Assembly: GCA_965279035.1 (NCBI GenBank)
Contig: OZ257142.1
Span: forward strand, 1,088,001-1,152,000
Reading direction: 5' to 3'
DNA: 64,000 nt
Source: Bacteroidia bacterium
GTDB taxonomy: Bacteria > Bacteroidota > Bacteroidia > M30B66
Shown here: positions 705-44,711 of the stretch, in pieces
Position numbering within the stretch: position 1 is the first letter of the stretch
Layout of the letters: each line of letters starts with the position of its first letter
Program-made: the position numbers and the translations under genes
The notes under the pieces: model-generated
The model's input: only the letters and a program-made list of their open reading frames with translations
Told to the model about the DNA's origin: nothing
The model's database searches: none

Positions 705-833
705 GGGCATTCGTTGACCTCACCCCCGGCCCCTCTCCGCGGGAGAGGGGAGTTTTAATCCGTGAATTAATGAGGCTTAGCAGTTTTTCTCATACATCGT
801 AAATCGGATAGCGAAGCGGTCGTAAATCGAAAT
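705..833 (-). repeat. Dispersed REP-like element, copy E1 (TTTACGA head plus CCCCTCTCC/GGAGAGGGG hairpin)
   Basis: The reverse complement aligns by eye with 29223-29324 and 40845-40984, and starts right after the stop codon of the 834..2303 gene. Confidence 0.85.
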
Positions 834-2303
834 TCAATTCACCTTTAATACCTTCTCTGTCACTATAATCTCATCGCCCTTTAAAACCCGACAATAATAA
901 ATGCCAGTAGCCAATGAAGAAATACTCAGGCTATGCACTCCTATGTTAGTGAAGCTTTCCTGTTGAACAAGGCGCCCAGTTGCATCCAGTAGTTGAGCGG
1001 TATACGCTGAGCCAGCAGTTTCCAAATCTATGCGCAGCCAGTTTGTTGCTGGGTTGGGATAAATCGTAACAGCATCGGGGAAGGGTGCATCTTCGATTCC
1101 TACACCACAGTTGGCTGGATCAAGGCAACCATCGGCATCGAGTTTTACTACCCAAGCATTTTGTCCACCGCAGCAAAAATCATCATCAGCAGCCCCGCTT
1201 ATCAATAAGCCGCCATCTTTCGTCTCAATGAAGTCAAGAAAAAAATCAGCTCCATTGCCGTGGTCGTATTCTTTTCGCCAAAGTAAATTTCCCAAGGAGT
1301 CTGTTTTCATAATAAAGCCAGCATTTATTGTAGTTGTATTTATGCCAACAGAAACAACACCTCCATCAGAAACTTTGCGACCGATATAGTTTTCATTGTT
1401 GTACAACGATGTATAAGTCTTATTAAAAATTATATTACCAACAAGATCGGTCATTACTAGTTTTGGTCCACCAGCTTGGTATTTATAACCAGAAAAAAGC
1501 AATTTATCTGGTCCAAACCGGCTCATTCCTCCTTCTGTAATTTGGGATAATTGCCATCCGTCTTGCCGAATTCCATTCTCATCTAGTTTTATTAAATACT
1601 CGTATCCAACATCACTAGTGAAAGCTGTTCCAGCTACACCCGCTACCAAAAAACCTCCACCATCTGCATTAATAATTGACTTTGGCAAATCAGCAATATT
1701 CTCATTTATTAAGGATTCAGAGAGTAATTGTCCATCTTCGCTTAATTTGACAAAGTACCCATCGTGATCATTTGTTGTTGTAAAATATCCGCGAGAAGCT
1801 ATTAATGCAAAGTCGCCTTGAGGTGTTTCAATTAAATCCTTTGGTGTGTCAAAATACAATGAATCAGTGTGATAATAAGACCATATCGTGTCTTGCAAAT
1901 CCGGACTTAGTTTTAAAACAAAAATCTGATTTCCCCCTGTTCCTCCAATTCTGCTTCGGGTATCGAACAAGATTAAATTTCCGTCATGGCACTTAATTAA
2001 CGATCCAACACTTAGAAATCTTCTTGATGCATCATGCTTGAAATTGTCAAGGACAATTTCTCCCTGATCATCAAATGCATGTACACGTTCAAAACCGCCA
2101 TCTTCCAAATACAAGCTGTAACCCGAACTAGAAATACAATAGCGTCCACTATCCAACTCGATTGGACGAGATGGAAGTCCTCCAAAAACTCCGGTATCAT
2201 TGTAAGTTCTTGCAAAAGTTGGAACCTGCGTTAACAAAGATTGAAATGAAAAAAGAAGAGCTAATGCAATCAAGTTTTTCATTACGCCTTTAATATGTTG
2301 CAT
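834..2303 (-). CDS. Secreted beta-propeller-like protein with a T9SS type A C-terminal sorting domain
   Basis: Signal peptide; repeated DxxxTxDGGxLIxG blades; C-terminus IYPNPAT...LATGIYY...KVLKVN. The true start may be the second Met (MKNL). Confidence 0.85.
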   Translation of the reverse strand: MQHIKGVMKNLIALALLFSFQSLLTQVPTFARTYNDTGVFGGLPSRPIELDSGRYCISSSGYSLYLEDGGFERVHAFDDQGEIVLDNFKHDASRRFLSVGSLIKCHDGNLILFDTRSRIGGTGGNQIFVLKLSPDLQDTIWSYYHTDSLYFDTPKDLIETPQGDFALIASRGYFTTTNDHDGYFVKLSEDGQLLSESLINENIADLPKSIINADGGGFLVAGVAGTAFTSDVGYEYLIKLDENGIRQDGWQLSQITEGGMSRFGPDKLLFSGYKYQAGGPKLVMTDLVGNIIFNKTYTSLYNNENYIGRKVSDGGVVSVGINTTTINAGFIMKTDSLGNLLWRKEYDHGNGADFFLDFIETKDGGLLISGAADDDFCCGGQNAWVVKLDADGCLDPANCGVGIEDAPFPDAVTIYPNPATNWLRIDLETAGSAYTAQLLDATGRLVQQESFTNIGVHSLSISSLATGIYYCRVLKGDEIIVTEKVLKVN

Positions 2304-2509
2304 GTCTATTACCTATTTGTCCTCGCCACGGAGTTCTCTTAAATAAAGTCTTTCAACGATTTTCCGTGAAAAATTCTTTTTACTCTCTTCTCCCTTCTTT
2401 CTACTTGTCCTTGCCTAAAATAGGTTGACTTTTTATTATCACTTTCTACTTTGTTAAAGTAGTTTATTGTTTGTTGTTTTAAGTTTCTTTTTTGGTTCTT
2501 TTTTCTTTG

Positions 2510-3376
2510 TTAAGAAGTTGTATTTCTGTTGATATTTCCTGAATTCCAGTTATATATGGTCATAGAAGGATTTTGATTTCTTTGGTTATTCACTTTTTCA
2601 TATTCAGTAGGTGTTAGCATGCCTAATTCACTGTGTGGTCGTTCATTATTGTAAAGATCCATTGCCTTTTTTGCCATCTCATTGAGATTGCTTTTGGTTA
2701 GATTCCATTGAAGTAAGTACTCGTTTTTTATGATGCCATTTATTCGTTCAACATAAGCATTTTCTTGTGCTATTGACGCCATACTGATTCGTATTCCTTT
2801 GCTTTTTAGCATCTCTTTATGCATCGTGCTGATGTATTGTGAACCTCGATCAGAATGAAAAATGCAATTATCTAAATCGTGCCCTTTCCTTATTTTAAAG
2901 GCTTTTCTAAGTGCTTTGATATTTTCCTCCGCTCTTAAGCTTGGAGACAGATGTAGAGCTAATAAGCGCCTTGAATAGACATCTTCAATACAGATTCCAT
3001 AATGATGTGCATGCTCTACATCGAGATAAAATATGTCAGATTGCCAAAGCATATTCACATCATTAATCGTTATTCCATTTATCAGATTGTCATATATCTC
3101 AACGCGTTGAGACCAAGTCGTTCGTATTGGATTTCTCTTCTTCTTAACCTTATATCCGTACCTAAAACCAATCCGCTCAAAAGCATCCCTACCTATTGGA
3201 TGGCGTTGTGGATCCATAAAATAGATCTTTCTACAACCCATTTGGCGATGATTATGACGCACTTTTGATATGTAACGAACGATACTTTCTTCCACCTTTA
3301 ATTGGTCGCGACTTCGTCTTTCACTCTTCCAAAGTGCTTGCTTACTAAGGCCTGCCACTTCTAACAGACTCTTCAT
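2510..3376 (-). CDS. IS3 OrfB, DDE integrase-core transposase
   Basis: WQSDIFY, DVYSRR, FHSDRGSQY, ENAYVERINGIIKNE and YNNERPHSEL motifs. Confidence 0.95.
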   Translation of the reverse strand: MKSLLEVAGLSKQALWKSERRSRDQLKVEESIVRYISKVRHNHRQMGCRKIYFMDPQRHPIGRDAFERIGFRYGYKVKKKRNPIRTTWSQRVEIYDNLINGITINDVNMLWQSDIFYLDVEHAHHYGICIEDVYSRRLLALHLSPSLRAEENIKALRKAFKIRKGHDLDNCIFHSDRGSQYISTMHKEMLKSKGIRISMASIAQENAYVERINGIIKNEYLLQWNLTKSNLNEMAKKAMDLYNNERPHSELGMLTPTEYEKVNNQRNQNPSMTIYNWNSGNINRNTTS

Positions 3377-3795
3377 TTTGTACCCGTGCTTTTGTCCTTT
3401 TGTGGATCGGAACCAGAGTAAGGCTGGTTTAATAAATTTTTTTTTAAATCAGTTTGGAACTCCTCATTTGCTAACTCAATGACCTTGCTCAATAAATCAA
3501 GTTCCATCTGTTTTCGGCCCAATGCGGCTTCCAATTCACGGATGCGCTGCTCAAGCTCTTTGCTTTTGTATGATTCGCTTTGCACTTCCACTACTAAGAT
3601 TTTTCCTCTCTTCAAATATCGACTATATTGATAAATCCATCGATAAACTGAAGTTATTGTTACTCCTAGTTCCTGGGCTACTTTAGATACTGAAGCCACT
3701 CCGGATTCAATATCCTTAACTGTTTGACGCTTTAATTCTTCACTAAAAACTCTTCGTGGCCGAATTACTTCTTTGCGATTTAAATGCTTTTTCAT
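3373..3795 (-). CDS. IS3 OrfA, HTH plus leucine zipper
   Basis: RRVFSEELK...VAQELGVTITSVYRW HTH; coiled coil; A9 slippery run at 3437-3445. Confidence 0.92.
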   Translation of the reverse strand: MKKHLNRKEVIRPRRVFSEELKRQTVKDIESGVASVSKVAQELGVTITSVYRWIYQYSRYLKRGKILVVEVQSESYKSKELEQRIRELEAALGRKQMELDLLSKVIELANEEFQTDLKKNLLNQPYSGSDPQKDKSTGTK

Positions 3796-3843
3796 GTCCC
3801 GTTTTTTAAGTTGATTTTGGTCAACCTATTTCAGTCACGGACA

Positions 3844-3891
3844 ACTCTTTACTCTCTACTTTGTACTTTCTACTTTTTACTCTCTACTAAT
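3844..3891 (-). repeat. Heptamer array (CTACTTT/TACTCTC on +), continuing at about 2374-2405 across the IS3; inverted relative to 558-688
   Basis: actctttactctctactttgtactttctactttttactctctactaat lies directly after the stop of the PspC-like gene. Confidence 0.85.
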
Positions 3892-4113
3892 CTAAAGATC
3901 CCAAACCCGCGTCTTGCTCGATTGAATCAAGTTCTTGATGCGCAGAATAAAGGCCATGTGCAAATACACAATAATGGGTGAGCCTAAGGTGAGGAAGGAG
4001 GCGTAGATGAAGAACAATCGAATTTGTGATGACTTCATTCGGAGCTTATCGCCCAGCCAGGTGCAAACGCCAAATGCTTGTCGCTCAAAAAAATCGGAGA
4101 TAGACTGAATCAT
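3892..4113 (-). CDS. Small PspC-domain membrane protein
   Basis: From ATG 4113: MIQSISDFFERQAFGVCTWLGDKLRMKSSQIRLFFIYASF...; the FGVCxxLG and IRLxFI pattern fits PspC. Confidence 0.8.
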   Translation of the reverse strand: MIQSISDFFERQAFGVCTWLGDKLRMKSSQIRLFFIYASFLTLGSPIIVYLHMAFILRIKNLIQSSKTRVWDL

Positions 4114-4203
4114 GGTTTGGCGTTGTTCTATGTGTTGGCTAATATAGCGAAAAGGATTTCTGATTACAAGCAAGCAAATCACATTCAGAACCGACTCTTT
4201 CTC

Positions 4204-4211
4204 TACCTTTG
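4204..4211 (+). promoter_or_regulatory. Bacteroidota -7 promoter box for pruA
   Basis: TACCTTTG matches TAnnTTTG, 17 nt upstream of the ATG. Confidence 0.6.
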
Positions 4212-4228
4212 CGGTCCAAAATCACGTC

Positions 4229-5860
4229 ATGATCAAAGGTTTTTTTCATCTCCCAAAAGCTGTAAATGAACCGGTAAAGAGCTATGCTCCCGGCAGCGCA
4301 GAAAAAACAGAACTGAAAGCCATGTTGCAACATCTGCAGTCGGTGCAGCTCGATATCCCCATGGAAATTGGTGGTCGTTCTGTATTCACCGATCAGAAAA
4401 TTGAGTTGCGCCAACCACATAAACGCAAACATGTACTTGGAACTTTTTCGCGAGGAACCGAGCAGCATGTAAAAGATGCAATTGATGCGGCATTAGCTGC
4501 CAAAGCCAATTGGGAAAAAATGAGCTGGGAAAACCGTGCTGCCATTTTCCTCAAAGCGGCCGATTTAATTGCTGGTCCTTATCGTGCTCGTTTGAATGCA
4601 GCTACTATGTTGGGGCAATCGAAAAGTGCTTATCAAGCAGAGATCGATTCGGCTTGCGAAATCATCGACTTCTTGCGCTTTAACGTGCAGTACATGAGTC
4701 AGATTTATTCGCAACAACCCGAATCTTCTGCAGGAATTTGGAACCGTTTGGAGCAACGTCCGCTGGAAGGATTTGTCTTTGCGTTAACGCCATTTAACTT
4801 CACTGCTATTGCAGGAAATCTTCCAACTTCTGCAGCCATGATGGGCAATGTAGTGGTTTGGAAACCTGCCGATACGCAAATTTATGCTGCGCATGTGTTG
4901 ATGGAAATTTTCAAAGAAGCAGGTGTGCCAGCTGGGGTAATCAACCTCGTTTTTGTAAGCGGACCAACGGCTGGAAATGTGATTTTCTCGCATCCTGATT
5001 TTGCGGGTATTCACTTCACTGGATCAACAGGCGTTTTCCAAAACATCTGGAAAACCATTGGAGATAATATTCACAAGTACAAAACCTATCCACGCATTGT
5101 TGGCGAAACAGGCGGGAAAGATTTTATCATGGTGCATTCTTCGGCACAACCTGCTGTGGTAGCTACTGCCATTGCACGTGGTGCCTTCGAATACCAAGGA
5201 CAAAAATGTTCTGCTGCTTCTCGCTGCTATGTTCCTGATAATATTTGGCCAGCTGTAAAAGAGCAATTGGTTCGCGATATGGCGAGCTTCAAAATGGGGC
5301 CAGTAGACGATTTTAGCAATTTCATCAATGCCGTAATCGATGAGAAATCCTTCGATAAGTTGGCTGCATACATCGATGCTGCGAAGAACGATCCGAATGT
5401 CGAAATCGTTGCCGGTGGAATCTACGATAAGAGCGAAGGCTACTTCATTGCACCAACTGTAATCTTGGCTAAAGATCCGAAGTACACGACCATGTGCGAG
5501 GAATTGTTTGGACCAGTGGTTACTATATATGTATACGAAGCCGCTAAGTTTTCCGAAACCTTAAAGCTTGTTGACGAAACTTCAATTTACGCTTTGACGG
5601 GTTCTATCATCAGTCAGGATCGTTATGCTGTGGACGAAGCTACGTATGCACTTCGCAATGCTGCGGGTAATTTCTACATCAACGATAAGCCAACAGGAGC
5701 AGTCGTAGGCCAGCAGCCATTTGGTGGCGCGCGCGGTTCCGGTACAAACGATAAAGCCGGCTCGATGATTAATTTATTACGTTGGGTTTCACCACGTACG
5801 ATCAAAGAGACCTTCGTTCCGCCAACCGATTATCGCTATCCATTCTTAAAGGAAAGCTAA
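4229..5860 (+). CDS. pruA: L-glutamate gamma-semialdehyde (P5C) dehydrogenase
   Basis: ALDH motifs PFNFTAI, FTGSTGVF, GETGGKDF, FEYQGQKCSAASR, EELFGPV and QQPFGGARGSGTNDKAG. Confidence 0.95.
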   Translation: MIKGFFHLPKAVNEPVKSYAPGSAEKTELKAMLQHLQSVQLDIPMEIGGRSVFTDQKIELRQPHKRKHVLGTFSRGTEQHVKDAIDAALAAKANWEKMSWENRAAIFLKAADLIAGPYRARLNAATMLGQSKSAYQAEIDSACEIIDFLRFNVQYMSQIYSQQPESSAGIWNRLEQRPLEGFVFALTPFNFTAIAGNLPTSAAMMGNVVVWKPADTQIYAAHVLMEIFKEAGVPAGVINLVFVSGPTAGNVIFSHPDFAGIHFTGSTGVFQNIWKTIGDNIHKYKTYPRIVGETGGKDFIMVHSSAQPAVVATAIARGAFEYQGQKCSAASRCYVPDNIWPAVKEQLVRDMASFKMGPVDDFSNFINAVIDEKSFDKLAAYIDAAKNDPNVEIVAGGIYDKSEGYFIAPTVILAKDPKYTTMCEELFGPVVTIYVYEAAKFSETLKLVDETSIYALTGSIISQDRYAVDEATYALRNAAGNFYINDKPTGAVVGQQPFGGARGSGTNDKAGSMINLLRWVSPRTIKETFVPPTDYRYPFLKES

Positions 5861-5916: not shown

Positions 5917-5995
5917 TGGGCAGCAAAATCGGGCTATACGTTCCAATCTTTTGCTCGAAACTCACAAAAGGATTTCCACTGCTATCCCGGCTGCT
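5917..5995 (+). repeat. REP-like element (CGGGCT...ATCCC type)
   Basis: cgggctatacgttccaatcttttg...caaaaggatttccactgctatcccggctgc has nested complementarity and resembles 29361-29430. Confidence 0.55.
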
Positions 5996-6201
5996 TCTGC
6001 TAAAATTCAAATGTTCATCAATTATTCAATCGATACATAAAACATCATAAAAAGTGTTTCAATTGCAACCATTTTCCCATGTAAGAAATTAAATGAACTG
6101 AAAATCAGGTCGGTATGAGTTTGTAATAATGCACATGAATCGGTTCTGAGAATGATGTAGAAAGAGACGTGTTTTGTCGGCTTCAACCAACCATCCAAAA
6201 C

Positions 6202-27263: not shown

Positions 27264-29222
27264 ATGAAATACAGATCATTTCTGTTTTTATGTATGCTAC
27301 TGCTTGCTTGTGTTCATTTGGGAGCGCAAGAAAAGGAAGATCCTTGTCCATTATCTACCAATAAAAAGGCACGAAAACTTTACGATAAAGCCATTGATGC
27401 AGCCCGTTCAAATAAGAATGAAGCGAAGGCATTATTGACAGAAGCCTTAGAACTTGATCCAGAATTTGGACGTGCAAATTACATGATGGCCGATTTGCTC
27501 ATCAAAAGCAAAAAAACCGTTGAGGCAGAACCCTTTCTTTTGCAAGTGGCAAGCGTTTGTCCAGATTTAGATCCGCTTACTTTTTACCGTTTGGGAAGTA
27601 TTCAGTTTGGTGCAAAACGCTATCAAGAAGCACAGAAAAATTTAGCTCGTTTCTTAGAAAGCAATGGAGGAAAGGAAAAAGAACGTAGCGATGCTCGCGA
27701 ACAACTTACAGCTGCTACTTTTTATATCGAAGGCTTTGCGAAACCGGTTCCTTTCGATCCAAAACCTTTAGCTTCTATTTCTTCCGAAGCCGACGAATAT
27801 TTACCCATTATCACTCCCGATAATCAACGTGCTTATTTCACACGTCGCACTTTGGAGAAAGAGAAATTTACTGGTGGAATTGAAGCAGAAGTAAAACCAG
27901 TAGAACGTTTTAGTTGGAGCAATGCGCTCGGTGATAATGTCTTTGAAAAAGGTCAGCCAATGCCGCCTCCTTTCAACAAACAATCGAACGAAGGTGGTGC
28001 CAGTCTTTCGGCCGATAATAGAACCTTGTTCTATACCATTTGTAAGCAAGAAGGCGCGGAACTCTTAAACTGTGATCTCTGGTTTTCGGTATTTGGAAAA
28101 GATACTTGGTCTGAAATTAAAAATGCTGGTCCTATCATCAATGGAAAATCAACCTGGGAATCGCAACCTTCGCTTTCTTCGGATGGAAAAACCTTGTATT
28201 TCGCCAGCAATCGCCCCGGTGGAATGGGTGAACTTGACATTTGGAAATCAATCAAGGACAAAGATGGAAAATGGGGAGTTCCTATCAATCTAGGTCCGGA
28301 GATTAATACTCCCGGAAACGAAAAATCACCCTTCTTTCACTCCGATGGTCAAACCTTATATTTCTCTTCCACAGGACACATGGGTTTTGGTGGATATGAT
28401 ATTTTTTATGCGAAGCTCGATAAAGAACTAGGTTGGCAAAAGCCGAAAAACATTGGTTATCCGATCAATTCAGAAAAAGATGATTTGGGCTTTTTCGTCA
28501 GCACCGATGGTAAAACAGGCTATTTCGCTTCCGATAAATTGAAAGGTGCCGGAGGTTGGGATGTGTATTATTTTGGTTTGTACAAAGAAGCGCGTCCCGA
28601 ACGAGTTGTCTTTCTCTCTGGCGAAATAAAAAATGAGAATAATCAATCTGTTGGAGATGCTCGAGTTGAAATTCAAAACATTCGTACAAAAGAAATTACG
28701 ACCGTTGATGTTGACTCTGCTACTGGAAAATACGTTGCCGTTATGGCATTTACCGAAGACCATGTGGTGACAGTAAAGCAACCAGGTAAAGCATTAACCA
28801 CCGAATACCTTTCCGTTGCCGATTCTTCCTTGAACAAACCCCGAAAGATGGATATGCAAGTGAAGGAAATTGAAGTGGGGAAAGCCTATAAAATCAATAA
28901 CCTGAATTTCGGTACCAACTCCGCCGACTTCAATGCGCAAACCATTTTCATTATTCAAGAATTAGCTGAATTCCTTCGAGAAAATCCCACAATAAAAATT
29001 GCCATTCACGGTCACACCGATAATGTAGGCGATCCGCAAACCAACATGGTTTTATCGAACGACCGCGCCCGTCATGTTTATGAACTCTTGCTTATCGAAG
29101 GCATCAAATCCGAGCGTCTCACCTGGAAAGGTTTCGGCATGACAAAACCCATCGCCTCAAACCTTTCAGATAAAGGAAAAGCCATGAATCGCAGGACGGA
29201 GTTTGTGATTACGGGGAAATAG
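27264..29222 (+). CDS. OmpA-family protein with TPR and PD40 repeats (PorE-like architecture)
   Basis: TPR N-terminus; SQPSLSSDGKTLYFASNRPGG PD40 repeats; GHTDNVG...LSNDRA...NRRTEF OmpA_C domain. Confidence 0.9.
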   Translation: MKYRSFLFLCMLLLACVHLGAQEKEDPCPLSTNKKARKLYDKAIDAARSNKNEAKALLTEALELDPEFGRANYMMADLLIKSKKTVEAEPFLLQVASVCPDLDPLTFYRLGSIQFGAKRYQEAQKNLARFLESNGGKEKERSDAREQLTAATFYIEGFAKPVPFDPKPLASISSEADEYLPIITPDNQRAYFTRRTLEKEKFTGGIEAEVKPVERFSWSNALGDNVFEKGQPMPPPFNKQSNEGGASLSADNRTLFYTICKQEGAELLNCDLWFSVFGKDTWSEIKNAGPIINGKSTWESQPSLSSDGKTLYFASNRPGGMGELDIWKSIKDKDGKWGVPINLGPEINTPGNEKSPFFHSDGQTLYFSSTGHMGFGGYDIFYAKLDKELGWQKPKNIGYPINSEKDDLGFFVSTDGKTGYFASDKLKGAGGWDVYYFGLYKEARPERVVFLSGEIKNENNQSVGDARVEIQNIRTKEITTVDVDSATGKYVAVMAFTEDHVVTVKQPGKALTTEYLSVADSSLNKPRKMDMQVKEIEVGKAYKINNLNFGTNSADFNAQTIFIIQELAEFLRENPTIKIAIHGHTDNVGDPQTNMVLSNDRARHVYELLLIEGIKSERLTWKGFGMTKPIASNLSDKGKAMNRRTEFVITGK

Positions 29223-29324
29223 ATTTACGATTTACGATCGCTGCGCTGTACGAGAAAATCTGCTAACTCACAAAATAACACGGATTCTCTCCCCTCTCCC
29301 GAGGAGAGGGGTTGGGGGTGAGGT
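29223..29324 (+). repeat. Dispersed REP-like element, copy E2
   Basis: ATTTACGATTTACGATCGC...GTACGAGAAAA...CTCCCCTCTCCCGAGGAGAGGGGTTGGGGGTGAGGT, starting right after the TAG. Confidence 0.85.
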
Positions 29325-29432: not shown

Positions 29433-29468
29433 TCATTCTGCAAAACTCGAATATCCTCACCATTTCAT

Positions 29469-29666
29469 CCTCGGACTGAAGTCCGAGGCTACAGGTCACA
29501 CATGCTATATTCGTTAGACCTACACTCAAGCACATTGCTAATCTCAAACTACCGCACCCTCGGACTGAAGTCCGAGGCTACCGTTCACAAATATTAGATT
29601 CGTTATACCTACACTCAAGCACAATGCTAATCTCTTACAACCGCACCCTCGGACTTCAGTCCGAGG
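29469..29666. repeat. Three 20-bp palindromes at an exact 89-bp period
   Basis: CCTCGGAC-N4-GTCCGAGG at 29469, 29558 and 29647; the two spacers are similar to each other. Confidence 0.9.
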
Positions 29667-36400: not shown

Positions 36401-37438
36401 TTTATTACTAATTGCCCTGTTGCAGATCCCATTACAACTGGAGGAATTGAATTAAAATGTTGGACCCATAATAATTTCTCGACCCCAGGAATAACAGTAG
36501 ATATTGTGGAATCGATAGAACCTACTATTAAATACAGGAATAAAATAAATTTACTAATTAGTCCAGATACATCTAATCCTTATGCATCAGTTGAGAAAAG
36601 AATGATCGCTAGAGAATTATTTACCGAATTGCTTTTCGATTCAATCACAACGTTAAGTGATACCTTAGTTTCGTTTATTGATTCTATGTCGATAGTTCCT
36701 GATGGAATTTTTGAATTGCTTAAAACAAGCTTATTAGACACTATAAATATAGATAGCTTGTCTTCAGATTCTTTGATTTTAGAAAAAATGATAAACAAAT
36801 CAAATAAGCTGAACAATGCTTTAATAGTAAACAACGCGATTAGCAGCTCAGACCCACTCATATATCGTGAAAAATACTTGAATTCCATTATTTGGGGATT
36901 AGACTTGCAACAAACTAATATTAGAATCGATTTAATAAATGAAATGGATTCAACAATTAATATGGATAGTTTAATTCAATTTTACCAATCAGATCCTAGA
37001 AAAAACCCTAAATTTTCTTCAATTCAAAAAGATAGTATTTTAACTATGGCTAATGATTGTCCATTTGAATGGGGGAATGTGGTTATTCGTGCTAGAGGGG
37101 CTGCATCTAGTTTTGATACATCGATTTTTTATATAAATCCATGTGAAATATATTTTGAAGAATCGGCACGCTTAGCTGCACCTCAAAAGAATAAAATAGA
37201 AGCACAAATAAGTGTTTATCCTAATCCATTTAAAGAACAAGTAACCGTTCAGTTACCTCATGAAATGAATGCTCAAATAAGCATTTATGATATAACAGGT
37301 CGTTTATTTCAATCGATTACGATAAATAAACAACAACAAATCAGTATACCAACAACTAATTTAAAACAAGGTGTTTATTTTATTGAAGTGCTTCAAGATT
37401 CGAATCAAATTTATAGACAAAAAATGGTGAAATCATGA
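30435..37438 (+). pseudogene. Giant T9SS-secreted beta-helix/adhesin-like protein (about 2334 aa if repaired), split by a 1-bp frameshift, probably at the T5 run 30804-30808
   Basis: ATG 30435 gives a signal peptide plus TWTGSVSTNWNTAANW. The -1 frame SIHGSSTISHCVFKK... runs without a stop into ORF 30950..37438, which ends VYPNPF...GVYFI...KMVKS. Confidence 0.75.
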
Positions 37439-38466
37439 GAAATAAAGTCTTTTTCTGGCTAATATTATTGTATAATCCATGTATTTCACAACAAAATCTT
37501 GTGCCAAATGGTTCTTTTGAAATTTTAACAAGTTGCCCTAACGATGATTCATTATCAACATCTCAAATTGAACTTGCTCAACCTTGGTGGAATGCTTGTA
37601 AATTAAATAATCCCAATACACCAGATGTTTTTAATCCTTGTAATTCAGGAATTTATAAAGTTCCAAATAACTTTAAAGGATTTGAAGAAGCATATTCTGG
37701 TGATGGTTATGCTGGGTTTGGAGCTTGGTCGGGCTTAAATGGTTGGACAGAACATTTTGAAGTGAAATTAACTAATACAATTAAAGCAAATGCTCAATAT
37801 AGATTTTGCTTTCACTTGAGTTTAGCAGATTATGCTGGCGCTTATGGTTTAAGAAAATTAAGATTTTCGCTTACCTTGGATTCATTAATTGGAATTGATT
37901 CAGCATTCTTTAATCCCTTGATTAATCCATTCCCTAGTATAAATGTTCTTGATTTATATGAAACATCTAGTACAACCGAAGTTAGTTATGATAATTGGGT
38001 TGAAGTTTGTACTGATTTCACATTAAATCAAAATGCGAATTACCTAACAATTGGCACCTTTATTCAGACTAGTTTAAATACCGATACTTTTTTAATAAAT
38101 AATGAAGAACCTTGGGCTTTAAGTAATTATTACTTTATAGACGATGTATCCTTAATTTGCATAACCCCCTCGGGTTGTGATGGTGTGGGAGTTGAAGAAG
38201 TAGAGCAACAATTGATACTTCAAATTTCCCCAAATCCATCAAACAATTTAATCACACTAAAAAGTCCTTTAATAAAATCTGGTGCGAATTTATTTTTAAG
38301 AGATCTTTCAGGTAGATTAATTCGCCAATTAAAAATTCAGGAGTTAAATCAATATGAATTAAGTACTCATGATTTAGCTGATGGGATTTACCTTGTTCAA
38401 ATTATTGGAGAAGATGGTAGGCAGGTTAGGGATAGGTTTGTGGTGCAGCATGATGGTATTAAGTAG
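37435..38466 (+). CDS. T9SS-secreted protein with an NLVPNGSFE carbohydrate-binding-like domain
   Basis: QNLVPNGSFE, TPD, YYFIDDVSL; ISPNPS...GIYLV sorting domain; ATGA overlap with the upstream gene. Confidence 0.85.
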   Translation: MRNKVFFWLILLYNPCISQQNLVPNGSFEILTSCPNDDSLSTSQIELAQPWWNACKLNNPNTPDVFNPCNSGIYKVPNNFKGFEEAYSGDGYAGFGAWSGLNGWTEHFEVKLTNTIKANAQYRFCFHLSLADYAGAYGLRKLRFSLTLDSLIGIDSAFFNPLINPFPSINVLDLYETSSTTEVSYDNWVEVCTDFTLNQNANYLTIGTFIQTSLNTDTFLINNEEPWALSNYYFIDDVSLICITPSGCDGVGVEEVEQQLILQISPNPSNNLITLKSPLIKSGANLFLRDLSGRLIRQLKIQELNQYELSTHDLADGIYLVQIIGEDGRQVRDRFVVQHDGIK

Positions 38467-38596
38467 TTAGTATTAAGTATTATGATTTTAAATGTCCTTG
38501 CCTAAAATAGGTTGACTTTTTATTATCACTTTCTACTTTGTTAAAGTAGTTTATTGTTTGTTGTTTTAAGTTTCTTTTTTGGTTCTTTTTTCTTTG

Positions 38597-39463
38597 TTAA
38601 GAAGTTGTATTTCTGTTGATATTTCCTGAATTCCAGTTATATATGGTCATAGAAGGATTTTGATTTCTTTGGTTATTCACTTTTTCATATTCAGTAGGTG
38701 TTAGCATGCCTAATTCACTGTGTGGTCGTTCATTATTGTAAAGATCCATTGCCTTTTTTGCCATCTCATTGAGATTGCTTTTGGTTAGATTCCATTGAAG
38801 TAAGTACTCGTTTTTTATGATGCCATTTATTCGTTCAACATAAGCATTTTCTTGTGCTATTGACGCCATACTGATTCGTATTCCTTTGCTTTTTAGCATC
38901 TCTTTATGCATCGTGCTGATGTATTGTGAACCTCGATCAGAATGAAAAATGCAATTATCTAAATCGTGCCCTTTCCTTATTTTAAAGGCTTTTCTAAGTG
39001 CTTTGATATTTTCCTCCGCTCTTAAGCTTGGAGACAGATGTAGAGCTAATAAGCGCCTTGAATAGACATCTTCAATACAGATTCCATAATGATGTGCATG
39101 CTCTACATCGAGATAAAATATGTCAGATTGCCAAAGCATATTCACATCATTAATCGTTATTCCATTTATCAGATTGTCATATATCTCAACGCGTTGAGAC
39201 CAAGTCGTTCGTATTGGATTTCTCTTCTTCTTAACCTTATATCCGTACCTAAAACCAATCCGCTCAAAAGCATCCCTACCTATTGGATGGCGTTGTGGAT
39301 CCATAAAATAGATCTTTCTACAACCCATTTGGCGATGATTATGACGCACTTTTGATATGTAACGAACGATACTTTCTTCCACCTTTAATTGGTCGCGACT
39401 TCGTCTTTCACTCTTCCAAAGTGCTTGCTTACTAAGGCCTGCCACTTCTAACAGACTCTTCAT
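38597..39463 (-). CDS. IS3 OrfB transposase
   Basis: Identical translation to 2510..3376. Confidence 0.95.
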   Translation of the reverse strand: MKSLLEVAGLSKQALWKSERRSRDQLKVEESIVRYISKVRHNHRQMGCRKIYFMDPQRHPIGRDAFERIGFRYGYKVKKKRNPIRTTWSQRVEIYDNLINGITINDVNMLWQSDIFYLDVEHAHHYGICIEDVYSRRLLALHLSPSLRAEENIKALRKAFKIRKGHDLDNCIFHSDRGSQYISTMHKEMLKSKGIRISMASIAQENAYVERINGIIKNEYLLQWNLTKSNLNEMAKKAMDLYNNERPHSELGMLTPTEYEKVNNQRNQNPSMTIYNWNSGNINRNTTS

Positions 39464-39882
39464 TTTGTACCCGTGCTTTTGTCCTTTTGTGGATCGGAAC
39501 CAGAGTAAGGCTGGTTTAATAAATTTTTTTTTAAATCAGTTTGGAACTCCTCATTTGCTAACTCAATGACCTTGCTCAATAAATCAAGTTCCATCTGTTT
39601 TCGGCCCAATGCGGCTTCCAATTCACGGATGCGCTGCTCAAGCTCTTTGCTTTTGTATGATTCGCTTTGCACTTCCACTACTAAGATTTTTCCTCTCTTC
39701 AAATATCGACTATATTGATAAATCCATCGATAAACTGAAGTTATTGTTACTCCTAGTTCCTGGGCTACTTTAGATACTGAAGCCACTCCGGATTCAATAT
39801 CCTTAACTGTTTGACGCTTTAATTCTTCACTAAAAACTCTTCGTGGCCGAATTACTTCTTTGCGATTTAAATGCTTTTTCAT
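39460..39882 (-). CDS. IS3 OrfA
   Basis: Identical translation to 3373..3795. Confidence 0.92.
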   Translation of the reverse strand: MKKHLNRKEVIRPRRVFSEELKRQTVKDIESGVASVSKVAQELGVTITSVYRWIYQYSRYLKRGKILVVEVQSESYKSKELEQRIRELEAALGRKQMELDLLSKVIELANEEFQTDLKKNLLNQPYSGSDPQKDKSTGTK

Positions 39883-39982
39883 GTCCCGTTTTTTAAGTTG
39901 ATTTTGGTCAACCTATTTCAGTCACGGACAAAAGATAATGTTCAGATTTAGCACATCGTAATACTTCGTACTTGTTACTTAA

Positions 39983-40040
39983 TTCGATTTACGATCGTCC
40001 CATAGGGACTGTTCGATATACGATGTACGAGAAAAGCTGC
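39983..40040 (+). repeat. Partial copy (E3) of the dispersed element, head only
   Basis: TTCGATTTACGATCG...TTCGATATACGATGTACGAGAAAAGCTGC; lacks the GC hairpin. Confidence 0.65.
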
Positions 40041-40128
40041 TGTGCTAAAGAATTCTACTACGAGAGCTAAATTTATAAACGAATGCTTGTCCTACATAAG
40101 ATTTCGTAATTCTCTTACCTCCAACTCT

Positions 40129-40260
40129 TGTTTCACTCAAAACGGTTTCAATTATTTTGAAACAGCTGCAATTGAAACAAAAAATGTTTCACTTAAATTG
40201 TTTCATGAAATTTGAAACATTAGGAGTTGAAACAACTAAAATGATTGCTACATTGTTTCA
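40129..40260. promoter_or_regulatory. Phased array of TGAAACA/TGTTTCA heptamers, putative operator or recombination site
   Basis: Copies at 40129, 40144 (GGTTTCA), 40158, 40173, 40185, 40199, 40213, 40228 and 40254. Confidence 0.6.
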
Positions 40261-40274
40261 ATATTCTCGACGTC

Positions 40275-40844
40275 ATGAAATTGAAACAAGAAAACATCGA
40301 AGCTTTTATGGAATTAGAGGCTCGCAAAGCTCTTGGAATTTCTCAAGATTTATTGGCAAGTATGTTAAATGTAAATCGCGCACAAATTTCCATGATGGAA
40401 TCGCGACAAGAACGTTCATTACCATCAAAAGCCAATGTCCTTCTATTACCTATAAGAGAAAACGTAATGAAATGTTTGCTCCAGATGCAAGCAGCAAAAG
40501 AGAAAACCATTCAACTTGAATTAGATTTCCAAGAAGCATTGAAAAAGCAATTAAGTAAAGCAGAAAATGATTTAAATAATATCAACTTCAAATTACCCCA
40601 TTTAGAAGAAAAAATGGATTTTTATGCAACACAATATCAGCTCATCAAAACCTATATAGCCAATATGGATGTGAAGAAAGATCCAATCCTTTTTTCAGCA
40701 CTAGGAGATTCTCTAACTGAAGCGAAAGAACAAGTAGAAAAATTAAGCTATCAATTAAATGTTAAATTAAAATTCAAAAAAAACCAATTAGAATTAGGCA
40801 TTGCATGGATGAAAGAACAGTTAAATCAACTAGCTAAAACTTAA
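40275..40844 (+). CDS. XRE-family HTH protein with a long coiled-coil C-terminus
   Basis: ARKALGISQDLLASMLNVNRAQISMMES HTH followed by heptad-rich helices; start uncertain. Confidence 0.8.
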   Translation: MKLKQENIEAFMELEARKALGISQDLLASMLNVNRAQISMMESRQERSLPSKANVLLLPIRENVMKCLLQMQAAKEKTIQLELDFQEALKKQLSKAENDLNNINFKLPHLEEKMDFYATQYQLIKTYIANMDVKKDPILFSALGDSLTEAKEQVEKLSYQLNVKLKFKKNQLELGIAWMKEQLNQLAKT

Positions 40845-40984
40845 TTCGATATACGACCGCTTCATTATTCGATATACGATTTACGATCGCTTCGCTGTAC
40901 GTGAAAAACTGCAAACTCACCAAATAAAATGGATTCTCTCCCCTCTCCCGAGGAGAGGGGCAGGGGGTGAGGTCAACGAATGCC
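40845..40984 (+). repeat. Dispersed REP-like element, copy E4
   Basis: Begins right after the TAA; aligns with E1 through ...GGGGGTGAGGTCAACGAATGCC. Confidence 0.85.
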
Positions 40985-40999
40985 TGTCCAACTAAATTT

Positions 41000-41041
41000 C
41001 CGTAATTCGTAATTATCAATTCGTAATTATCAATTCGTAAT
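41000..41041 (-). repeat. TCGTAAT/TATCAAT heptamer array (also at 42359-42401 and 43797-43809)
   Basis: cgtaattcgtaattatcaattcgtaattatcaattcgtaat is read directly. Confidence 0.9.
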
Positions 41042-42358
41042 CAGTACTGTCCGGTTAAAGTTTAAATCAGAAAAAAGGAGCGACCATTTCGATCACTCCT
41101 TTTGTGATTATTTTTGAGTTACGACACACCAAAATAATCATGAGTAAAAGTAAATATTTTACCGGACAGCCGATTTACAGTCAACTCCTTTCTTATCTGC
41201 CTCAGACGAAAGTAAAGAACATAGCTGATGAGCATAACGCTGATAGGTATTATAAGAACTTCAGGACTTATACGCACCTAGTAACGATGCTTTACGCAAT
41301 CTTTAATCGGTGTACAGGTATCCGAGAAGTGACCTCAGGCCTACTTGCCTGGGAAGGCAGGATACAGCATTTAGGAATCAACTACTTTCCCAGAAGGAGC
41401 ACGATTTCAGATGCAAATACCAGTCGACCAGCCGATGTCTTTGAAGATATTTACTACTGGCTTTATGACCGATACAAGCATTTTTTACCGGACAGCCGAA
41501 GTAAAATCGCATCCCGGCTTTATATTGTTGACTCGACAACGATTCAGTTGTTTCAGGAAGTTTTGAAAAATGCCGGTCGTAATCCCGCCGATGGTAAGCG
41601 CAAAGGCGGTATTAAGGTGCATACTTTAATGAGGAGTGATCAAGACGTGCCTTGCTTGATAAGGTTCTCTGCTGGAGCTGGAGCCGACAGCCCATTTCTG
41701 CAGAACATACACCTGCAACGTGGGTCCATTGTGGTGTTTGATCGTGGTTATAATGATTACAAGCAATACAACCGTTTCTCGGAAGAAAATGTCACATGGG
41801 TGACCCGATTACGAAACAACACCGTGATCAAAGTCCTGCGGGAAAAGAAAATTTCAGACAAGGAAAAGCAGAACGGAATTTTGCTCGACCAGATTATAGA
41901 AATGGGCCACACCAAGCACAATAACAATACACGAGTGAAGGCACGTCTTATAAAATATGAGGACAAAAAATCGAAGAGGATATTTGAATTCATAACCAAT
42001 AACAATCAATTCAAACCCTCCTCAATCGCACTGTTTTATAAAAATCGTTGGCAGATCGAATCGCTATTTAAGCGTATCAAACAGAACTATCCGATGCAAA
42101 GCTTCCTTGGAGAGAGCGAAAATGCGATCAAAATCCAAATCTGGTGTGCCCTGATCGCTGACCTTGTCTTAAAAATTGTCAAAGCAAGAGCTGGTAAAAA
42201 CTGGTCGTTTTCAAATCTTGCAGCCATGGTCAGGCTACATTTGATGACCTATATCAACCTTTTTGAATTCCTCATCAATCCTGAAAAATCGCTAATTAGA
42301 AATCAAATTAAATCCTTTCAACTGCCATTGTTCCCTCCATAGGGGGCTTTATTTTAAA
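41042..42358 (+). mobile_element. IS4-family element, copy A, lacking its right end and IR
   Basis: Left IR CAGTACTGTCCGGTTAAA; matches copy B until ...TTTTAAA, then switches to the heptamer array. Confidence 0.88.
41140..42342 (+). CDS. IS4-family DDE transposase
   Basis: IVDSTTI, GGIKVH, FDRGY and YKNRWQIESLFKRIKQ (YREK) motifs. Confidence 0.95.
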   Translation: MSKSKYFTGQPIYSQLLSYLPQTKVKNIADEHNADRYYKNFRTYTHLVTMLYAIFNRCTGIREVTSGLLAWEGRIQHLGINYFPRRSTISDANTSRPADVFEDIYYWLYDRYKHFLPDSRSKIASRLYIVDSTTIQLFQEVLKNAGRNPADGKRKGGIKVHTLMRSDQDVPCLIRFSAGAGADSPFLQNIHLQRGSIVVFDRGYNDYKQYNRFSEENVTWVTRLRNNTVIKVLREKKISDKEKQNGILLDQIIEMGHTKHNNNTRVKARLIKYEDKKSKRIFEFITNNNQFKPSSIALFYKNRWQIESLFKRIKQNYPMQSFLGESENAIKIQIWCALIADLVLKIVKARAGKNWSFSNLAAMVRLHLMTYINLFEFLINPEKSLIRNQIKSFQLPLFPP

Positions 42359-42401
42359 CGTAATTATCAATTCGTAATTATCGTAATTATCAATTCGTAA
42401 T

Positions 42402-43796
42402 CAGTACTGTCCGGTTAAAGTTTAAATCAGAAAAAAGGAGCGACCATTTCGATCACTCCTTTTGTGATTATTTTTGAGTTACGACACACCAAAATAATCA
42501 TGAGTAAAAGTAAATATTTTACCGGACAGCCGATTTACAGTCAACTCCTTTCTTATCTGCCTCAGACGAAAGTAAAGAACATAGCTGATGAGCATAACGC
42601 TGATAGGTATTATAAGAACTTCAGGACTTATACGCACCTAGTAACGATGCTTTACGCAATCTTTAATCGGTGTACAGGTATCCGAGAAGTGACCTCAGGC
42701 CTACTTGCCTGGGAAGGCAGGATACAGCATTTAGGAATCAACTACTTTCCCAGAAGGAGCACGATTTCAGATGCAAATACCAGTCGACCAGCCGATGTCT
42801 TTGAAGATATTTACTACTGGCTTTATGACCGATACAAGCATTTTTTACCGGACAGCCGAAGTAAAATCGCATCCCGGCTTTATATTGTTGACTCGACAAC
42901 GATTCAGTTGTTTCAGGAAGTTTTGAAAAATGCCGGTCGTAATCCCGCCGATGGTAAGCGCAAAGGCGGTATTAAGGTGCATACTTTAATGAGGAGTGAT
43001 CAAGACGTGCCTTGCTTGATAAGGTTCTCTGCTGGAGCTGGAGCCGACAGCCCATTTCTGCAGAACATACACCTGCAACGTGGGTCCATTGTGGTGTTTG
43101 ATCGTGGTTATAATGATTACAAGCAATACAACCGTTTCTCGGAAGAAAATGTCACATGGGTGACCCGATTACGAAACAACACCGTGATCAAAGTCCTGCG
43201 GGAAAAGAAAATTTCAGACAAGGAAAAGCAGAACGGAATTTTGCTCGACCAGATTATAGAAATGGGCCACACCAAGCACAATAACAATACACGAGTGAAG
43301 GCACGTCTTATAAAATATGAGGACAAAAAATCGAAGAGGATATTTGAATTCATAACCAATAACAATCAATTCAAACCCTCCTCAATCGCACTGTTTTATA
43401 AAAATCGTTGGCAGATCGAATCGCTATTTAAGCGTATCAAACAGAACTATCCGATGCAAAGCTTCCTTGGAGAGAGCGAAAATGCGATCAAAATCCAAAT
43501 CTGGTGTGCCCTGATCGCTGACCTTGTCTTAAAAATTGTCAAAGCAAGAGCTGGTAAAAACTGGTCGTTTTCAAATCTTGCAGCCATGGTCAGGCTACAT
43601 TTGATGACCTATATCAACCTTTTTGAATTCCTCATCAATCCTGAAAAATCGCTAATTAGAAATCAAATTAAATCCTTTCAACTGCCATTGTTCCCTCCAT
43701 AGGGGGCTTTATTTTAAATAAATACCATCAACACCCGCATTTACTGCAACTACAGAAGGTAAATCATGCAATCTCAATTTTAACCGGACAGTACTG
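42402..43796 (+). mobile_element. IS4-family element, copy B, complete (1395 bp)
   Basis: 18-bp IRs CAGTACTGTCCGGTTAAA; 9-bp target duplication ATTCGTAAT at 42393-42401 and 43797-43805. Confidence 0.95.
42500..43702 (+). CDS. IS4-family DDE transposase
   Basis: Identical translation to copy A. Confidence 0.95.
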   Translation: MSKSKYFTGQPIYSQLLSYLPQTKVKNIADEHNADRYYKNFRTYTHLVTMLYAIFNRCTGIREVTSGLLAWEGRIQHLGINYFPRRSTISDANTSRPADVFEDIYYWLYDRYKHFLPDSRSKIASRLYIVDSTTIQLFQEVLKNAGRNPADGKRKGGIKVHTLMRSDQDVPCLIRFSAGAGADSPFLQNIHLQRGSIVVFDRGYNDYKQYNRFSEENVTWVTRLRNNTVIKVLREKKISDKEKQNGILLDQIIEMGHTKHNNNTRVKARLIKYEDKKSKRIFEFITNNNQFKPSSIALFYKNRWQIESLFKRIKQNYPMQSFLGESENAIKIQIWCALIADLVLKIVKARAGKNWSFSNLAAMVRLHLMTYINLFEFLINPEKSLIRNQIKSFQLPLFPP

Positions 43797-44711
43797 ATTC
43801 GTAATTATCTCCCACACCATTGCAGATCGATCATCACTTCCCGAAATTAGGTAGTTTTTATAGCTTGACCAATGCAGGGAATTTACCGAATTGATGTGTC
43901 CTTGAAATTGAGCGGTGTCGATTCGAAGCAGGAATTCGCAGGTGTTCGCGTCCCAAATTTTGATGGTTTTATCGCGACTTCCCGTTGCAAACAATTCTCC
44001 ATCAGGATGAAATACGATTGAATAGATGGCGTAGTTATGAGCAGGAATACTTTGTACTAGTGAAAAATCATCATTCAAATCCCAAACGTTTAAATGGGCC
44101 TCTTTTGAACCACTTAATAGCCATCTCCCATTGGGATGAAAACAAAGTGCATTCACCGACATTGTATGTGCTTCCCAAGCATGAATGATTTGAAGCGATT
44201 TGCTGCTCAATATTCGAATCTGATTATCACCACAACCAATAGCAATGATACCCGTTGTTTGGGAATATTCGATCGTTCTAATTTTTACTTCGCATAACTG
44301 AACCGAATGAATGCATTGGAAATCATGTACATTCCACACTACAAAATGTCCATCTCCACCGCAACTATATACTTGCTCTGTAAAAGGATTCCAACACAAA
44401 TCATAAACACCTTTGGTATGACCTAATAGGTAGCGTACTTCTGCTTTTTTAATTAAATCAATCACATGAATTCCGCCTTGGTCATTTCCCACCAAAAGCA
44501 AATGAAATTCTGGAATATAGCAAGTACAATAAATCACTCCCGGAGTGTGAGCAAGAACATGCATGGGCTTGAACGTATCGAGCGACCATTCAACAACCAG
44601 TTTATCGCTTCCTGCCGAAAGAAAAGCATTGTTTTCAGGTGCCTGATTCACTGTATAAACAGCACCATCGTGACCTTTTAATTGCTCTATTTTCTTAGCA
44701 AGGATTTTCAT
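43764..44711 (-). CDS. WD40-repeat protein; last 10 residues derive from the IS
   Basis: Multiple GH/AH...WD repeats, e.g. AHNYAIYSIVFHPDGELFATGSRDKTIKIWD. Confidence 0.93.
   Translation of the reverse strand: MKILAKKIEQLKGHDGAVYTVNQAPENNAFLSAGSDKLVVEWSLDTFKPMHVLAHTPGVIYCTCYIPEFHLLLVGNDQGGIHVIDLIKKAEVRYLLGHTKGVYDLCWNPFTEQVYSCGGDGHFVVWNVHDFQCIHSVQLCEVKIRTIEYSQTTGIIAIGCGDNQIRILSSKSLQIIHAWEAHTMSVNALCFHPNGRWLLSGSKEAHLNVWDLNDDFSLVQSIPAHNYAIYSIVFHPDGELFATGSRDKTIKIWDANTCEFLLRIDTAQFQGHINSVNSLHWSSYKNYLISGSDDRSAMVWEIITNQYCPVKIEIA

Follow-up and report, generated by a model that had tools for sequence, protein, structure and literature searches.

Two classes of bacterial repeat, the BoxC/PIT/triplex motifs and the heptamer repeats, have been described for decades, and to our knowledge neither has been given a mechanism or a function. 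Conserved protein genes tolerate Rickettsia palindromic elements in frame, and copies of these elements also lie between genes. TMECO is a G/C-rich intrastrand triplex motif of the BoxC/PIT class (Holder et al., 2015, PMC4666352), and in the main text of that paper the rule for such motifs is that a C-rich arm pairs with a purine arm while a third, G-rich arm mirrors the purine arm, with G.G:C, A.A:T and T.A:T triads, stems of 8 to 15 nt and loops of 1 to 6 nt. According to the same main text, which does not contain the word "Bacteroidetes", the Escherichia coli copies are always intergenic, show no strand bias and have no link to mobile elements. [quoted passage not shown] The available text on REP, BIME and REPIN repeats places them mostly downstream of coding regions, where they are plausibly transcribed, and notes that REP termini can supply a stop codon and that some REP copies are in frame inside genes (Di Nocera, 2013, PMC3733652; Quentin, 2018, PMC6006769).

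The window (the whole stretch of 64,000 nt analyzed here, from contig OZ257142.1 of a Bacteroidia bacterium) joins a triplex-type module of Bacteroidota to a stop-adjacent head of the heptamer kind. It carries four copies, E1 to E4, of an element that is probably a mosaic of two repeat classes in untranslated DNA just behind genes. The module resembles BoxC, PIT and TMECO in its succession of a 9-nt C-rich arm, a short loop, a 9-nt purine arm, a short loop and a mirror G-rich arm; in all of them the stems are highly conserved and the loops variable, the copies are dispersed and sometimes form inverted pairs, and the function is unexplained. It differs from TMECO in its second loop, which has 2 nt instead of 3 nt, in its sequence register, and in that the Bacteroidota copies are often in frame, flanked by DUF559 and sense-biased. 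The runs at 29222-29238, 40866-40887 and 38456-38482 resemble the published heptamer repeats, and the arrays of another genome that we examined (G047) are textbook cases. However, the heptamer units of the window are A/T-rich, whereas the published ones are G-rich, and they amount to only 2.4 to 3.1 units before non-tandem sequence follows. With the Rickettsia palindromic elements the module shares the tolerance of palindromic repeats in frame in genes and between them, while it differs from them in phylum and sequence, in its much shorter unit, in bracketing a DUF559 cassette, and in that the window copies are all intergenic. Additionally, heads and arrays are capped here by a GC module, an association that goes unmentioned in the available text on published heptamer repeats. 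Like REP, BIME and REPIN repeats, these are short GC-rich palindromes that form mosaics with other motifs and lie mostly behind genes, and the G-arm GGGGTGAG fits the GGGGWSAS motif which the available text of PMC3733652 and PMC6006769 gives for inverted repeats flanking some tyrosine-transposase genes. At the hairpin foot of E1, E2 and E4, neither of the REP tags GTAG and CGTC was found.

Anatomy of the elements and their position behind genes

The first-pass annotation reported four copies with shared sequence blocks, and alignment, profile search and comparison with shuffled sequence found all of them in place, at the positions that it gave and alignable over those blocks. Their parts, together with one separate array, are as follows.

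706-716, minus strand: tail of E1
717-752, minus strand: hairpin module of E1
753..833, minus strand: head of E1, directly 3' of the TGA at 834-836
29223..29288, plus strand: head of E2, with a shortened 5' end, directly 3' of the TAG at 29220-29222
29289..29324, plus strand: hairpin module of E2, without tail
38456..38482, plus strand: separate GTATTAA-type heptamer array, overlapping the stop codon (38464-38466) of ORF 37435..38466
39983-40040 and 40078-40089, plus strand: head and tail-like AACGAATGCTTG of E3, with no hairpin and no G-arm
40845..40937, plus strand: head of E4, directly 3' of the TAA at 40842-40844, defined by profile and alignment
40938..40973, plus strand: hairpin module of E4, defined by pattern, triad test and contig depth
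40940-40948, 40949-40951, 40952-40960, 40961-40962 and 40963-40972, plus strand: C-arm, loop, purine arm, spacer and mirror G-arm of the E4 module
40974..40984, plus strand: tail of E4, CAACGAATGCC, common to E1 and E3

In the window there are exactly three sites with the hairpin pattern CCCCTCTCCC-NN-GGAGAGGGG, all of which are read on both strands, and none of 100 shuffled sequences contained any match. The 17-mer TGTAYGWGAAAANCTGC has exactly four occurrences, corresponding to E1 to E4, and the 6 further matches listed have 3 mismatches each. A profile of the four heads likewise found only E1 to E4 (E = 7e-23, 3e-20, 7e-19 and 9e-13), the next match (E = 0.72) lying within an ORF. E2 and E4 are 90% identical over 103 nt spanning the junction of head and hairpin, which suggests that the head-plus-module composite has also been copied once as a block. 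The head of E4 contains two TTCGATATACGA-type units, the heptamer run at 40866-40887, a GCTTCGC block, TGTACGTGAAAAACTGC and GGATT, while in E2 the first base of the heptamer run at 29222-29238 is the last base of the TAG stop codon. The tail AACGAATGC, common to E1, E3 and E4, reaches past the ends first annotated; E3 has kept it although its hairpin and G-arm are missing, and judging from contigs it is apparently present on about half of the module copies of the genome. None of the small ORFs within the elements is conserved between copies.

The full copies had been described as beginning within about 3 nt of a same-strand stop codon, and the gap proved to be 0 nt in all three: E1 starts at 833 and abuts the TGA of ORF 834..2303 (minus strand), E2 starts at 29223 and abuts the TAG of ORF 27264..29222 (plus strand), and E4 starts at 40845 and abuts the TAA of ORF 40245..40844 (plus strand). 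All three thus lie within the range of heptamer repeats, 0 to 50 bp from a stop on the coding strand. The genes upstream encode a T9SS-tail protein, a PD40/TPR/OmpA protein and an HTH_3 protein; these are unrelated, and their Pfam domains extend nearly to the C-termini. For uniformly placed starts, the chance that all three lie within 3 nt of a stop is about 4/202 x 4/636 x 4/37, or roughly 1e-5. E3 has a TAA in the same register, yet no gene ends there. When the IS3 copy in front of it (about 38495-39929) was removed in silico, E3 came to lie 81 nt behind the stop of ORF 37435..38466; thus, all four copies stand behind same-strand genes. The GTATTAA-type array at 38456..38482 shows the same proximity to a stop as E1, E2 and E4, but its unit is unrelated.

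This IS3 copy is one of two near-identical members of the family (2408-3842 and 38495-39929), each with a 140-amino-acid HTH_Tnp_1 ORF and a 288-amino-acid rve ORF, and both are inserted beside heptamer arrays (3844-3888 and 38456-38482). A tandem pair of IS4-like elements (41021-43806; DUF4372 and DDE_Tnp_1, 412 amino acids each) begins inside the 14-nt tandem array that directly follows E4; its 1360-bp units are 100% identical, and the left inverted repeat is present twice (41032-41067 and 42392-42427) and the right one once (43771-43806). The long spacer downstream of E2 holds an 89-nt unit twice in tandem (29466-29643, 87 to 88% identical), each with a CCTCGGACT..AGTCCGAGG hairpin, an intergenic repeat unrelated to the elements. 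Between E1 and the start of an RmlD-like gene lie eight tandem copies of a 15-nt unit (7 + 8 nt) at 562-685.

Architecture and dispersal of the hairpin module

The element had been taken for one conserved unit of 100 to 140 bp, a view that contig depth contradicts. Contigs of two sequencing runs (X1 and X2), probably of the source isolate, carry the window almost word for word, and 23 contig records per run were aligned to 40650-41010 at 80% likeness. Summed depth was 197 and 208 over the gene and over 40845-40870, which is the level of the single-copy flank; it was about 440 and 419, or approximately twice the flank, over 40871-40935, corresponding to E4 plus E2; and over 40936-40987 it reached 2182 to 5030 in X1 and 1917 to 4371 in X2, 11 to 25 times the flank. 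Only the hairpin part of approximately 36 to 48 nt attained these values, the head remaining at one to two times the flank, and the loose ends of contigs at the module were unrelated to each other. Summed depth of contigs cannot be equated with copy number, and the diverged head of E1 was missed at 80% likeness, so that weaker head copies elsewhere would be missed too; the reading is therefore limited to a module present roughly twenty-fold and a head of low copy number. The hairpin thus spreads alone, and for this part the earlier idea of a nonautonomous mobile element is supported, each window copy being a gene-less member of a dispersed, apparently mobile repeat family.

The module is 36 nt long, or 47 nt with the tail found in the source genome, and consists, in order, of the C-arm CCCCTCTCC, a 3-nt loop, the purine arm GGAGAGGGG, a 2-nt spacer and the mirror G-arm GGGGGTGAGG. 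The modules of E1, E2 and E4 each have 9 of 9 Watson-Crick pairs and 9 of 9 purine-motif triads, with loops of 3 and 2 nt, and at the sequence level they conform to a class II (purine-motif) intrastrand triplex. Since the G-arm mirrors the purine arm exactly, which is a requirement for an intrastrand triplex, the remark in the first-pass annotation that the G-tracts could form alternative structures was apt. On its architecture, the module can be read as a Bacteroidota sequence variant of the BoxC/PIT/triplex-motif class. The strict TMECO pattern, CCCTCNCCC N3-6 GGGNGAGGG N3 GGGNGAGGG, matched neither the window nor any of 214 loci, so the module is a different sequence variant; a blastn search of E. 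coli genomes with the module also gave no match, for which the low-complexity filter may be the reason. The variant may already be listed in the ITxF database or in the supplements of papers from the Hartig laboratory. Of 143 hairpins, 109 had an invariant stem, and in the others the stem hardly differed; it therefore yields no covariation evidence, its invariance speaking neither for nor against a structure.

Five of the six frames of the module are free of stops and encode Pro/Gly/Ser-rich peptides. The module can therefore be read through, giving spurious small ORFs and odd loops in real proteins, and for annotation the GC module is of use as a recognizable source of such ORFs. A literature search for the arm sequences or the encoded peptides found nothing relevant. 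The exact 34-nt motif was present at at least 119 loci, and among the matches listed 78 of the 80 titled loci bore Bacteroidota names, from several orders. In an even sample of 201 Bacteroidota genomes, 24 had the module, with 0 matches to a reversed control pattern, and five genomes carried 35 to 125 copies each, with control counts of 0 to 1. More than half of the listed instances (65 of 121) were open for at least 70 codons on both sides; a looser in-frame test (60 codons) placed 105 of 121 inside genes and was judged too permissive to be used. Flanks of 19 of 21 translated module loci had a host enzyme domain, the remaining two (L168 and L012) having DUF559 only. The three window modules are gene-less solo copies, and all are intergenic. 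As a property of the hairpin family, targeting to stop codons is contradicted by the 65 instances in long open frames, as well as by gaps of 10 to 309 nt between module and upstream stop in a Flavobacterium MAG (G001).

In a Sphingobacteriales MAG (G702; loci L045, L046, L092, L112 and L119), two inverted modules with extra outer inverted ends make up a MITE of approximately 150 bp with 8-bp target duplications, in which the module has been captured in a conventional transposon-type element. The same test applied to E1 to E4 found no inverted ends and no consistent target duplication. Four other loci (L035, L038, L044 and L095) are 46-nt perfect palindromes, in which a single hairpin stands between a G-arm and the complement of that arm; these "double-foot" palindromes resemble a two-ended version of the module at its smallest possible size.

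A second arrangement links the module to a nuclease gene. Among 15 DUF559 matches in five genomes, 7 lay between two modules in inverted orientation (left, minus strand; right, plus strand) whose G-arms face outward; the cassettes span 502 to 642 bp, and no target duplication was seen. All DUF559 matches in open frames of 462 amino acids or more are among these seven, together with one in a frame of 266 amino acids, and the hosts of the seven include LeuRS, the GATase of FGAM synthase, MetH, a Mur ligase and methylmalonyl-CoA mutase, with chorismate synthase as the host in a further locus (L057). Among the matches listed, the DUF559 core motif lay within 300 to 400 nt of at least 27 of 119 module loci. 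The other 8 of the 15 DUF559 genes were free-standing and without modules, which argues against a simple one-enzyme story; one genome (G186) had modules and no DUF559 match; and none of the five in-frame DUF559 cassettes of G001, G047 and G005 carried this module, other GC-rich palindromes with a G-arm being present on four of the five, which suggests that every cassette lineage has a variant of its own. In the window there was no DUF559-like motif and hence no module-bracketed cassette. Among the listed papers on DUF559, judged by title or abstract, we found no printed description of in-frame DUF559 cassettes bounded by palindromes. In one further locus (L175, G102:C1:2696200-2697100), a DUF559 domain is followed by four tandem 78-nt (26-amino-acid) repeats that hold the module, in an HsdR-like helicase frame.

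The same motif thus brackets a small nuclease gene that is read in frame in essential enzymes, which provides a concrete candidate enzyme and a candidate substrate. It is conceivable, if quite unlikely, that the DUF559 (Vsr-like) nuclease is the missing enzyme behind the BoxC/PIT/triplex repeats: the palindrome with its G-arm would be its recognition or cleavage structure, the cassettes would home in frame into housekeeping genes, the solo modules would be miniature derivatives, and the heptamer runs near stops would be scars of slippage or favored landing sites at such structures. If true, this would connect two repeat classes that have long lacked an explanation, and it would account for the layout of stop codon, short-motif run and GC module.

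A link between the module and RAYT was rejected, as 0 of 12 Y1 loci (G702 to G705) had the module on both sides. Inverted-repeat scans of the flanks of five Y1 genes in these genomes found other palindromes or none; one locus had a module pair on one side only, another had a single module approximately 540 nt downstream, and G706 had 35 modules and no Y1 match. The Y1/RAYT-like genes at L149 (G702), L150 (G705) and L151 (G704) have their own, different palindromic repeats, e.g., the GGATAGGGTT..AACCCTATCC type in G702, which suggests that these genomes also contain separate REP systems.

The head and its parallels in other genomes

The head opens with CGATWTA-type heptamers (2.4 units in E2 and 3.1 in E4, with none scored in E1 and E3), and the rest of it is conserved non-tandem sequence that recurs as a dispersed repeat; since the head is mostly not tandem, assigning it to the heptamer class is partly an analogy. 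In a blastn search of 301 genomes of one order it gave only 7 chance-size matches of 20 to 45 nt. A metagenome collection held 0 matches to the composite pattern and 18 loci matching the head pattern, all of them unrelated coding sequence, and none of the first 119 module loci contained the head motifs. PurA probes gave identities of no more than 71% among 401 Bacteroidota genomes and 74% among 401 genomes of one order, and turned up no close relative.

Two genomes nevertheless provided parallels for the arrangement at stop codons. In the Flavobacterium MAG, 9 of the 10 intergenic single modules stand behind a same-strand ORF, with a Pfam domain in 8 of the 9 ORFs, and two composites (L179 and L187) begin at stop codons, one belonging to a response-regulator gene and the other to an FtsX gene. 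A head is present there in about 12 copies and is also found without the module; between it and the window heads there are collinear blocks, with scores that were reached by 3, 5 and 6 of 500 shuffles (E1, E2 and E4, respectively) and are therefore borderline. In G047, five unrelated genes with Pfam support are followed, 0 to 5 nt after their stops, by CTGGATA/CTGGATG heptamer arrays that continue into the module, a sixth array starts 17 nt after a stop, and in a seventh case the module itself lies 13 nt after the stop; the modules of this genome are embedded in heptamer arrays on both sides. Overall, the module lies in sense behind a same-strand gene in 3 of 3 cases in the window, 9 of 10 intergenic cases in G001 and 7 of 9 cases in G047.

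The stop adjacency and strand bias first seen in the window thus recur in both genomes, but they are tied to the head and not to the hairpin family: the stop-adjacent heads and arrays of the window, G001 and G047, together with the published heptamers, mark stop adjacency as a property of the head class. The first-pass annotation had also allowed that a described REP family might explain the element fully. This is so only in part, in that the hairpin and G-tract fit the BoxC/PIT/triplex motifs and the head fits the heptamer class.

Proposed origin and competing explanations

We propose that the 3' part of the element is a module of the BoxC/PIT/triplex class that spreads on its own, the window copies being gene-less solo copies, and that the 5' head is a low-copy, lineage-restricted repeat that behaves like the stop-proximal heptamer repeats. 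The module would be selfish or near-neutral DNA copied by a nuclease-assisted route, and the head-plus-module composite would later have been duplicated as a block, giving the resemblance of E2 and E4. The start at the stop codon could reflect the 5' end of the head itself, which is A/T-rich and led by T(A/G)(A/G), and not a dedicated stop-targeting machine; alternatively, and again without such a machine, repeat runs may fill all neutral space up to the gene, although this does not by itself explain how the 5'-shortened E2 abuts its stop exactly. Any effect on RNA, such as that of a stable 3' hairpin on the upstream mRNA, would be secondary, and the elements of the window are, most likely, passengers of 3' untranslated DNA that do no harm.

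Several other explanations account for parts of the same observations. Integron attC sites start at the stop of the preceding ORF, as these elements do, and the HTH_3 gene is bracketed by E3 and E4; however, no integron integrase was present among the 51 window ORFs scanned, the one RYYYAAC-like heptamer in E4 is by eye not conserved in E1, E2 and E3, and upstream lie ordinary chromosomal genes whose C-terminal domains are complete, so that the attC-like gene-cassette boundary suggested earlier is extremely improbable. Another possibility is that the element acts through DNA structure, a transient triplex or cruciform stalling replication and creating a hot spot for rearrangement and IS insertion, with the heptamer runs as slippage products. 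The 9-of-9 triads are consistent with this, as are the modules embedded in heptamer arrays in G047 and the neighboring IS copies: E4 ends approximately 35 nt before the tandem IS4-like pair, E3 starts approximately 53 nt after the second IS3 copy, and the other IS3 copy lies 1.6 kb from E1. The main text of PMC4666352 also reports that triplex-motif loci are more rearranged among E. coli strains, while the same text leaves a stable TMECO triplex in vivo unsupported. Moreover, there are just three such IS neighborhoods, without a control, heads occur without modules in G001, and the flanks of further module copies in the source genome are not repeats, all of which makes a role of this kind very improbable.

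The main idea of the first-pass annotation was a nonautonomous mobile element of approximately 100 to 140 bp, which would comprise head and module and insert specifically at stop codons. Three of three full copies start 0 nt after a stop, E3 has its TAA in the same register without a gene, E2 and E4 are 90% identical across the junction of head and module, by eye a matching triplet follows the 3' ends of E2 (TAG), E3 (TAA) and E4 (TAA), and the composites of G001 and G047 also begin at stops. However, no terminal inverted repeats and no consistent ends could be defined: in E2 the start is shifted by one unit and the tail is missing, while in E1 a TGA stands at the 5' but not at the 3' end. The head reaches only approximately twice the flank depth at 80% likeness while the module spreads alone, and the head was found neither in the 301 genomes of one order nor in the metagenome scans. 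No transposase is tied to head plus module, the nearby IS3 and IS4 copies having their own ends, and we regard this explanation as improbable.

A functional role in the 3' untranslated region is also rather unlikely. The element would be cotranscribed with the upstream gene, the GC hairpin protecting the 3' end of the mRNA as E. coli REPs do, and the head serving as a platform for protein binding. The sense orientation behind same-strand genes (3/3, 9/10 and 7/9) and the RNA hairpin predicted in all three full copies point in this direction, as do the position of REPs, mostly downstream of coding regions and plausibly transcribed (available text of PMC3733652 and PMC6006769), and the G-rich heptamer repeats, which in the available text are reported to be mostly transcribed. 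However, insertion linked to replication could account equally well for the orientation bias, the predicted folding of the whole elements is no better than that of shuffled sequences (z = 0.0, -1.6 and -1.4), and the invariant stem gives no covariation evidence. Where the module is in frame inside genes, a 3'-end role is impossible, and according to the main text of PMC4666352 PIT elements have neither promoter nor terminator activity in E. coli. There is no U-tract after the hairpin in the sense direction; terminator-like matches based on the module are on the opposite strand only, and the search for an intrinsic terminator on the sense strand gave one match, a weak 5-pair stem just past E2. 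The search of Rfam that had been recommended in the first-pass annotation assigned the elements to no family, either at the gathering threshold or by E-value, the best match on E4 having 21.8 bits against a threshold of 71. The sole match in the window above its gathering score was to the Flavo-1 RNA, at 5923-5996 on the minus strand (63.2 bits), and a further Flavo-1 match lies between two module copies in locus L187 of G001, at 785-852 on the minus strand (42.5 bits).
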